From positions 64,001 through 128,000 of the forward strand of contig CBFHTA010000002.1 in NCBI GenBank assembly GCA_965658655.1: 64,000 bases of DNA. The letters are read 5' to 3'. Source of the DNA: Candidatus Babelota bacterium. GTDB lineage: Bacteria > Babelota > Babeliae > Babelales > CAIQNR01. The translations under genes were made by a program, and so were the position numbers. Of the stretch, positions 11,259 through 11,990 are shown piece after piece. Positions within the stretch are counted from its first letter, which is position 1, and every line of letters starts with the position of its first letter. Below the pieces are notes generated by a model, which saw nothing but the letters and a program-made list of their open reading frames with translations, made no database searches and was not told where the DNA came from.

Positions 11259-11990
11259 ATGAAGAAACGTATAGTCATAGGTTTACTATTTGTTGGTGCC
11301 GCGTATGGTGCGTATACAGATAATGGAAAATTAACGCACGAGGAATGGCCTTCTAGTAATCCGAACTATTTGAATGCTATTCCAGGAGAACGAAGTTCAG
11401 AACAAAGAAGAAAAGATTTATTGAGGTCTCATAAATTAGATGAACAAGTACCAAGAGCAACAATTTTGGATGCTTCTTCTCGAAGAAACGCTCCTAATTA
11501 TTTGAATGCTGCCCCAGCATTGAATAGTTCGCATAATACATTTCTTCCACCTTCTTCTGAGCCAACTCATGAAAGTTTAAAGGATATTCAAGAACGATTA
11601 GGTGGTACATCTTTTCAAGTTCCTCCTCCCTTACCCCCAAGAAGAAGTAAGAAGCCGGTAGCTAGCAAAGCTAAGCCTTCTCCAGATTATCTTAAACCTG
11701 ATGCTGTTGTGACTCAGCACAACGCTTTAGGGTTGGGCGATGAGGATGATTTTGGAACTGTTGTTACTAGATCTGGAAGAGCTGTGGTACAAGATGCTCC
11801 AGCCCCGCCCCCAAGACGAAGTAAGAAGCCGGTAGTTAAAAAATCTAAGCCTTCTCCTGATTATCTTGAACCTCACAACGCTTTAAACTCGGACGATGAA
11901 GATGATTTTGGAACTGTTGTTACTAGAGATGGAAGAGCTGTGGTACAAGATGCAGATGACTTTTTTGCAGGTTTTGAATCTGAACTTTAA
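11259..11990 (+). CDS. Exported proline-rich protein with duplicated SH3/SH2-ligand-like motifs
   Basis: GGAGG RBS; signal peptide; PNYLNA x2, PxxPxRR x2, PDYLxP x2, EDDFGTVVTR x2. Confidence 0.85.
   Translation: MKKRIVIGLLFVGAAYGAYTDNGKLTHEEWPSSNPNYLNAIPGERSSEQRRKDLLRSHKLDEQVPRATILDASSRRNAPNYLNAAPALNSSHNTFLPPSSEPTHESLKDIQERLGGTSFQVPPPLPPRRSKKPVASKAKPSPDYLKPDAVVTQHNALGLGDEDDFGTVVTRSGRAVVQDAPAPPPRRSKKPVVKKSKPSPDYLEPHNALNSDDEDDFGTVVTRDGRAVVQDADDFFAGFESEL
11622..11954 (+). repeat. Internal duplication of about 55 codons (approx. 11622-11798 and 11799-11954)
   Basis: PPRRSKKPV...KPSPDYL.P...HNAL...DEDDFGTVVTR.GRAVVQDA occurs twice with near-identical DNA. Confidence 0.9.

Follow-up and report, generated by a model that had tools for sequence, protein, structure and literature searches.

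A signal-bearing, predicted-disordered orphan protein with duplicated SH3-ligand-like modules in the genome of a probable Dependentiae parasite

The gene considered here is an open reading frame (ORF) of 243 residues at 11259..11990 on the plus strand of a 64,000-nucleotide (nt) stretch of contig CBFHTA010000002.1 (positions 64,001 to 128,000), a stretch referred to below as the window. Its product contains no cysteine and 10.7% proline, and the isoelectric point of the mature part is about 6.1. A Shine-Dalgarno sequence, GGAGG (11247..11251, plus strand), is found 7 nt 5' of the ATG at 11259, and a perfect 24-bp hairpin (11993..12048, assigned to neither strand) lies between the ORF and the convergent dnaK gene. 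The hairpin was identified by folding (-35.8 kcal/mol, z = -11.5, with none of 200 shuffles folding equally well) and is likely a bidirectional terminator serving both genes; a consensus scan for promoters and terminators, which returned counts at or below shuffle expectation, missed it. Within the window no RNA family of Rfam was matched, no other ORF of at least 50 residues overlaps 11259..11990 on either strand, and among the 870 ORFs called in the genome the gene's coding-frame score is near the median (51.5th percentile). Both internal duplications described below preserve the reading frame. Given the GGAGG site, the genome-typical codon score, the frame-keeping duplications and the hairpin 3' of the stop codon, the ORF is a real gene.

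The first 17 residues (11259..11309, plus strand) resemble a Sec-type signal peptide, beginning with MKKR and continuing through the hydrophobic run IVIGLLFVGAA to small residues, with possible cleavage after A15 (GAA/Y) or G17 (AYG/A). Judged by eye, this N-terminus has the positive n-region, the h-region of about 10-15 residues and the small residues at -3 and -1 that characterise Sec export, so that the signal peptide named in an initial annotation of this DNA is kept here as a signal-like N-terminus, called by sequence reading and a lax in-house heuristic. Without a cysteine the protein is not a lipoprotein. A single-sequence AlphaFold2 model gave a mean predicted local distance difference test score (pLDDT) of 53.1 and a predicted template modelling score (pTM) of 0.15, with 119 of the 243 residues below 50 and none at 90 or above, and shows some short helices as well as a tiny hairpin in each of the two GTVVTR-x-GRAVV blocks. 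The chain is thus predicted to be mostly disordered, in line with what had been claimed for it.

Several short motifs are distributed along this chain, all of them located by reading of the sequence, given here with plus-strand coordinates, and standing at the residues that the initial annotation had listed. PNYLNA occurs twice, at residues 35-40 (Y37; 11361..11378) and at residues 79-84 (Y81; 11493..11510), the two copies lying in a 26-nt direct repeat that is 81% identical; the first copy is overlapped by NPNY (residues 34-37), which we take to be an NPxY-form site and which is the only one of that form in the protein. A class II SH3-ligand look-alike, VPPPLPPRRS, spans residues 121-130 (11619..11648; PPPLPPRR being residues 122-129), and a degenerate second polyproline copy, PAPPPRR, in which PxxPxR still fits, spans residues 181-187 (11799..11819). 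Each is followed by a tyrosine site, PDYLKP at residues 142-147 (Y144; 11682..11699) and PDYLEP at residues 200-205 (Y202; 11856..11873), and then by the acidic sequence EDDFGTVVTR, at residues 162-171 (11742..11771) and 214-223 (11898..11927). With GRAVV, the first copy of EDDFGTVVTR is modelled at low confidence as a small beta-hairpin (strands 168-169 and 175-176), and the strands modelled for the second are 220-221 and 227-228. The protein ends in DDFFAGFESEL (residues 233-243; 11955..11987), whose -SEL-COOH terminus may be read as a putative class I PDZ ligand; the basic run between polyproline core and tyrosine site may be a nuclear-localisation-like signal. That the protein is built almost entirely from such motifs, as was first suggested, is an overstatement: the listed motifs account for 66 of the 243 residues.

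The proposal that the gene was amplified by internal duplication is borne out by three direct DNA repeats inside it, 11616-11699 versus 11790-11873 (84 nt, 83% identical), 11718-11797 versus 11874-11953 (80 nt, 90% identical) and the smaller duplication of PNYLNA, 11360-11385 versus 11492-11517. Besides the PNYLNA pair, they yield two tandem modules on the plus strand. Repeat unit 1 (residues 120-177; 11616..11789) runs from the polyproline-arginine core through the basic run and PSPDYLKP to the acidic DEDDFGTVVTRSGRAVVQ block, and repeat unit 2 (residues 178-232; 11790..11954) keeps this block order with a deletion of six residues after PDYLEP. Among the 55 codons that can be aligned between the units, 38 are identical, 4 differ by synonymous and 13 by nonsynonymous changes. 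Since the copies come from in-frame internal duplications, the paired motifs are not independent of one another. In public data, the contig of one sequencing run (X1) is broken at the end of repeat unit 2, ending at 11952 and restarting at 11954, which is probably an effect of the internal repeat on the assembly graph.

The protein has no recognisable relatives in the collections searched. In a word-indexed search of 5.8 billion clusters, limited to lengths of 133-426 residues, 2403 candidates came up and the protein itself was the sole match, an exhaustive phmmer search of 1,835,955,588 representatives likewise matched nothing but the query, and no paralogue was found in its own genome. In a six-frame search of 61 genomes of relatives three were matched at an expectation value (E) of at most 1, namely its own and two others, one at E = 0.02 whose frame is interrupted by a TGA and one at E = 0.2. 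At E<=0.1 a profile made from the two repeat units found matches in eight out of 261 genomes from the order, its own included; the seven other matches have E values of 0.017-0.089 and internal stops in six cases, where about 26 matches are expected by chance, and none of the 260 other genomes of the order appears from these comparisons to hold a credible counterpart. Searches against families and structures were equally barren, with only a noise match to DUF7302 (E = 1.2) in Pfam-A at E<=10, none in NCBIfam at E<=1, only noise at E = 2 among the PDB sequences by phmmer, and no usable match in the ESM Atlas. In G001, the only genome of the same genus, the contig stops within dnaK and no trace of ychF or of the C-terminal half of dnaK was seen, so the orthologous interval is unassembled there.

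One candidate relative was rejected. A secreted EF-hand_5 protein of 164 residues on a metagenome contig (L144:588-1082, plus strand) has eight consecutive residues in common with residues 23-30 and aligns to residues 22-63 with 41% identity over 54 columns (38.5 bits, pairwise E = 2e-8); in the reciprocal search the 243-residue protein was the only match, at 22 bits. It had been picked by the exact 8-mer from 241 million records, a collection in which, by a rough estimate, a score of 38.5 bits is expected by chance many times, and the match is not significant collection-wide. The likeness could be due to chance, or the mature N-terminus could preserve the vestige of an EF-hand loop. EF-hand profiles found nothing in the protein at E<=10, and PF13202 found nothing in the genome at E<=1; the 12-residue loop of DxDxDG type is not present, loop position 1 being Ala.

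The gene is the last of a block of four same-strand, signal-bearing orphan genes (6157..11990, plus strand; 6157-6792, 6830/6917-9529, 9717-11159 and 11259-11990), which fills an interval of about 6.5 kb between ychF (4430-5524) and dnaK (12061-13971), both on the minus strand. Each of the four starts with a signal-like N-terminus and is without a family or a paralogue. In 12 loci from relatives, where dnaK was seen in 11 and ychF in six, no counterpart of any of the four was found. ychF lies close to dnaK in relatives, and in the six with both flanking genes on the stretch examined (L104, L105, L106, L108, L112 and L114) the intervals are 991, 1231, 2473, 5450, 6510 and 2566 nt long and contain unrelated signal-peptide ORFs. 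For the neighbouring gene 14198-15628, the likeness to its positional equivalent in the genome of the same genus is confined to a match of 17 residues in the signal peptide. The interval looks like a turnover hotspot of secreted orphan genes, and because its size and content vary across relatives, the 243-residue gene can be placed in that hotspot.

The genome, 95% complete, is made up of 4 contigs totalling 928,713 bases. Its dnaK is 70-81% identical to the nearest dnaK genes; of these, some are titled 'Candidatus Dependentiae' (72%) or 'Candidatus Babeliaceae' (69%), and the two best titled ones carry only the name 'uncultured Pseudomonadota' (78% and 76%). The bacterium probably belongs to the Dependentiae (TM6), an assignment backed by its TLC translocases, its signal-bearing ankyrin ORFs and its two secretin matches, and in keeping with the absence of VirB4 and FHIPEP matches. 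TLC nucleotide translocases gave nine matches in four tandem open frames (C1:489882-495556, plus strand; 466, 477, 444 and 472 residues), and such tandem translocases are a hallmark of energy parasitism. Ank_2 gave 32 matches in 14 ORFs, and on inspection all 14 have signal-like N-termini. The 0.93 Mb genome, the four translocases and the signal-bearing ankyrin ORFs leave little doubt that the bacterium is an obligate intracellular parasite with a eukaryotic host. The stretch is present in two DNA runs of one study labelled marine plankton metagenome, one of which may be the source of the assembly; the second run is fragmentary but identical in sequence, the contigs from both runs show no variants, and no RNA run containing the stretch is listed.

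Type II secretion components are shared by TM6 genomes, all of which have two gspD genes according to one survey (PMC4776705), in agreement with the two secretin matches here, and the description of Chromulinavorax (PMC6561590) reports signal peptides on 44% of coding sequences, a set enriched in ORFans, and on 78% of ankyrin proteins, together with budding outer-membrane vesicles that may carry effectors. In the genome studied here the in-house heuristic found 15 ORFs combining a signal-like N-terminus with a disorder-type composition and 3 with that composition and no signal.

How far the motifs exceed chance was assessed with 20,000 composition-preserving shuffles, the duplicates having first been collapsed. 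The tyrosine patterns Y.N (P = 0.08) and Y..P (P = 0.20) fall within chance, whereas low values were obtained for P..P.[RK] (P = 0.014), PP.PPR (P = 0.001), P.YL (P = 0.0001) and [DE][DE]FG.[VLIMF] (P = 0.0014). In the proteome of 282,094 residues Y.N occurs 473 and Y..P 366 times; P.YL occurs 37 times, four of them in this protein, and [DE][DE][DE]FG is confined to it. PP.PPR or PPPPR is present in 3 of the 870 ORFs, all three with signal-like N-termini.

SH3 domains emerge from these motif comparisons as the best-supported class of candidate partner. SH3 domains are general eukaryotic modules, so an SH3 reading needs no phosphotyrosine signalling in the host. Of the ten residues 121-130, eight are those of the Sos1 peptide reported to bind the N-terminal SH3 domain of Grb2 (PMC6934455), the P-x-x-P-x-R core and the arginine next to it among them. 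Together with the shuffle result for PP.PPR, this upholds the earlier recognition of a class II SH3-ligand-like core, the likeness being at the level of the motif. The PxxPx[RK] core is found in three overlapping matches (residues 123, 124 and 181) in an accessible, predicted-disordered context, and residues 121-130 have a mean pLDDT of about 63 and no secondary structure in the AlphaFold2 model.

The remaining motif assignments fared less well. The four tyrosine sites share the core [S/A/N]-P-[N/D]-Y-L and differ at the +2 and +3 positions. These are the positions that would set Grb2-type versus Crk-type SH2 specificity; with them variable and the collapsed patterns at chance level, the readings of pY-x-N and pY-x-x-P as SH2 ligands are not sustained, and a host with phosphotyrosine signalling, which had been deduced from them, does not follow. 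The acidic DDF and FxxF sequences had been interpreted as ligands of adaptin ears, but both DDFGTVV and DDFFAGF fail the gamma-ear consensus [D/E]FxD[F/W] given by Mills et al. 2003 (PMC2172650), and the protein contains no DPF/DPW, NPF or FxDxF motif. DDFGTVV does loosely resemble FGxLV of rabaptin-5 and DFGGF of p56, which another source (PMC13581114) gives as ligands of GAE domains.

The interpretation that we prefer, at odds slightly short of even (a probability of roughly 0.45), is that the gene encodes a Sec-exported, disordered, lineage-specific and host-facing protein with multivalent docking motifs. A recent duplication would have given rise to the two tandem modules, each offering a class II SH3-type polyproline-arginine core, a basic run, a P-x-Y-L site and an acidic Phe-Gly block, with two further P-N-Y-L sites upstream of them. 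Once exported by the Sec pathway, the protein would pass out of the periplasm either through the secretin of type II secretion or packed in outer-membrane vesicles, presumably as the signal-bearing ankyrin proteins of the lineage do, and might then bind host SH3-type domains, and possibly other adaptor domains, by mimicry of linear motifs. That the protein travels past the periplasm and meets host proteins is something we infer, as is each partner assigned to it.

A number of observations weigh against this interpretation. The signal call was made by eye and with a lax heuristic that flags 308 of the 870 ORFs, and the shuffle P values are optimistic in that the patterns were picked after inspection of the sequence. 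With no homologue in any collection searched, there is no comparison of motif conservation to draw on. Between the repeat copies, Nei-Gojobori estimates of nonsynonymous (dN 0.155) and synonymous (dS 0.183) divergence give a dN/dS of 0.85, and a runs test detects no significant clustering among the codons that changed (P = 0.10), so that purifying selection on the motifs is not in evidence. (A split of the repeat alignment into conserved blocks and diverged linkers gave widely differing ratios but was circular, the blocks being defined by their own identity, and these ratios were discarded.) In DDFGTVV, T and V stand where the gamma-ear consensus needs D and F/W. As to delivery, neither FHIPEP (PF00771) nor VirB4/CagE (PF03135) was matched in the 95%-complete genome, control genomes being positive for each and other components of type III and type IV secretion systems not having been searched. 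Substrates of type II secretion are normally folded, so that secretion of a disordered protein through the outer membrane can only be proposed.

The strongest of the alternatives, which we nonetheless hold to be unlikely, is that the protein is a disordered one of the periplasm or envelope, for example a spacer or tether, that stays apart from the proteins of the host cytosol and whose motifs arise by coincidence from a composition rich in proline, lysine or arginine, and aspartate. It agrees with a Sec-type N-terminus being the only demonstrable targeting feature, with the lack of matches to the injection-system markers FHIPEP and VirB4, with the chance-level frequencies of Y.N and Y..P and with the missing selection signal on the motifs. 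It is harder to reconcile with a protein that has neither a folded or envelope domain (only noise in Pfam at E<=10, nothing in NCBIfam at E<=1) nor a lipobox cysteine, and whose 8 of 10 likeness to a validated SH3 ligand is unusual (P = 0.001 for PP.PPR). Moreover, the same export signal is carried by all 14 ankyrin ORFs, which are eukaryote-directed, and the periplasm is thus not the default end-point of signal-bearing proteins in this genome.

Alternatively, the gene could be a young, fast-turnover orphan without a settled function, thrown up by a hypervariable interval in which signal-peptide ORFs come and go, its repeats reflecting recent slippage or duplication and neutral drift. The absence of a homologue among 1.84 billion representatives and of a paralogue, the 991-6510 nt span and unrelated contents of the dnaK-ychF interval in six relatives, the equivalent of 14198-15628 with only 17 signal-peptide residues in common and the repeat dN/dS of 0.85 would all be expected of such a gene. 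Yet its ribosome site is strong, a terminator follows it, its codons are used as is typical of the genome, and its frame is intact through both duplications; reduction of the genome to 0.93 Mb would also speak against the keeping of useless DNA. Fast evolution is, besides, equally expected of host-interaction proteins, so that this explanation overlaps with the one we prefer, and taken by itself it seems to us unlikely.

The explanation offered by the initial annotation, a Tir/CagA/Tarp-like scaffold effector whose host-phosphorylated tyrosines recruit Grb2-type and Crk/Abl-type SH2 domains alongside SH3 binding in a phosphotyrosine-signalling host, is very improbable: disordered Tyr-motif effectors are an established kind, and here four tyrosine sites (two YxN and two YxxP) lie in predicted disorder with an SH3-ligand-like core adjoining them, but YxN and YxxP occur at chance (P = 0.08 and 0.20) and are common in the proteome (473 and 366), it is P-[ND]-Y-L that is invariant while the SH2-specifying +2 and +3 positions vary, the protein is similar to no Pfam family, those of the named effectors included, the sample type is marine plankton, and with the markers searched, FHIPEP and VirB4, not found, injection of the Tir/CagA/Tarp type is not available.

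A bolder form of the host-facing, docking-motif interpretation would have a Dependentiae parasite of a marine protist export, by way of Sec and then a secretin or vesicles and with no injection machinery, a disordered adaptor mimic of two modules, which by its Sos1-like polyproline cores, PxYL sites and acidic Phe blocks cross-links SH3-domain and trafficking or cytoskeletal adaptors of the host. We think this doubtful, but if it were true the protein would be the first defined linear-motif-mimicry effector in the phylum, and would exemplify the de novo origin of such effectors in a hypervariable hotspot of secreted orphans next to dnaK. Disordered, repeat-built, motif-mimicking effectors are already well known, and the sequence described here belongs to no family. 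A search of full-text literature, from whose coverage most subscription-journal papers are missing, returned nothing comparable for Dependentiae with respect to linear motifs or SH3. The Dependentiae are widespread parasites of protists whose host-manipulation proteins are known only as bulk categories, namely ankyrin-repeat proteins and secreted orphans, and a protein as small and tractable as this one, with its nearly canonical SH3 ligand, would offer a way to a host target and possibly to the lineage of the host. It could also show whether export by signal peptide alone delivers disordered mimics to the eukaryotic cytoplasm and how mimic proteins arise in hypervariable genomic intervals. 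Should the motifs be coincidental, it is one more fast-evolving orphan.

Other genes of the window and genome may be recorded here. In the block that contains the gene, the secreted orphan of 480 residues at 9717-11159 (plus strand) carries the acidic tryptophan sites DQDDWE and DEVDWEN, and outside the window but on the same contig a signal-bearing, disordered protein of 656 residues (C2:174163-176133, minus strand) has two EEDDWDDDDD runs; acidic-tryptophan motifs are the Arp2/3-binding element of nucleation-promoting factors. In the secreted orphan at 6830-9529 (plus strand; 870-899 residues) one element recurs, as NFFSSLSPEDQKLMRDN and DVFFRSLSEEDKGFLQG, and long stretches are charged and resemble coiled coils; the sole Pfam match of this orphan is a sub-threshold one to ABC_tran_CTD (18 bits). 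In a signal-bearing protein of 283 residues (C2:176143-176994, minus strand, equivalent to L143:2644-3495) a PPPPPRKK core comes before an SPSPY site, that is, the order of the modules described above, a polyproline-arginine and basic element followed by SP-x-Y. It has no Pfam family, and as a candidate homologue of the 243-residue protein it was rejected at E = 5.9, with no detectable homology. Elsewhere in the window three consecutive beta-propeller repeat genes of DUF5122 type are found at 19006-23389 (plus strand; 452, 449 and 482 residues), paralogous arrays of the same type being present near dnaK in the relatives L107, L112 and L115, and four EamA-family transporters (306, 305, 299 and 303 residues) stand nearly in a row at 36076-36996 and 37251-40462 (both plus strand).

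Set beside known systems, the protein is nearest in kind to the secreted ORFans of Dependentiae, having a genome of that phylum (by our probable assignment), a signal peptide and no family. As in Chromulinavorax destructans, the bacterium is an obligate intracellular one with a reduced genome, and its orphan-rich set of Sec-signal proteins without family stands alongside signal-peptide ankyrin proteins; that description (PMC6561590) treats the class in bulk and contains no disordered tandem-module protein with SH3-ligand-like motifs, and no sequence relationship to other Dependentiae proteins was found. The likeness of residues 121-130 to the Grb2-SH3 ligand of Sos1, 8 of 10 positions (PMC6934455), is one of motif only, in a bacterial orphan whose second copy, PAPPPRR, is degenerate. 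The 'fishing line' regions of clathrin accessory proteins such as epsinR (PMC2172650) are likewise unstructured chains with several acidic Phe motifs, although DDFGTVV and DDFFAGF do not fit [D/E]FxD[F/W] and DPF/DPW, NPF and FxDxF are lacking.

Among bacterial effectors, the tandem-repeat proteins (TRPs) of Ehrlichia, according to PMC8112483, are also secreted by an obligate intracellular bacterium and mimic linear motifs without type III or type IV secretion, but they use a type I system in place of an N-terminal Sec peptide and are unrelated in sequence. Tir, CagA and Tarp share with the protein disordered regions, repeated Tyr motifs and host-like docking motifs (for Tir, PMC10864410). They differ in being delivered by type III or type IV systems, for which the markers FHIPEP and VirB4 were not found in this genome, in the absence of homology, and in that the Tyr motifs of the protein are not above chance in SH2-specific form and include no repeat of EPIYA type. 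EspF and EspFU (TccP) of attaching and effacing E. coli are disordered proteins that act multivalently through duplicated modules, in each of which an SH3 ligand rich in proline is joined to another docking element. They are type III-injected, whereas the genome studied here has no FHIPEP match, no Pfam similarity joins them to the protein, and its second element is a different one; in mode of action they are nonetheless what we propose the two modules of this protein to be.

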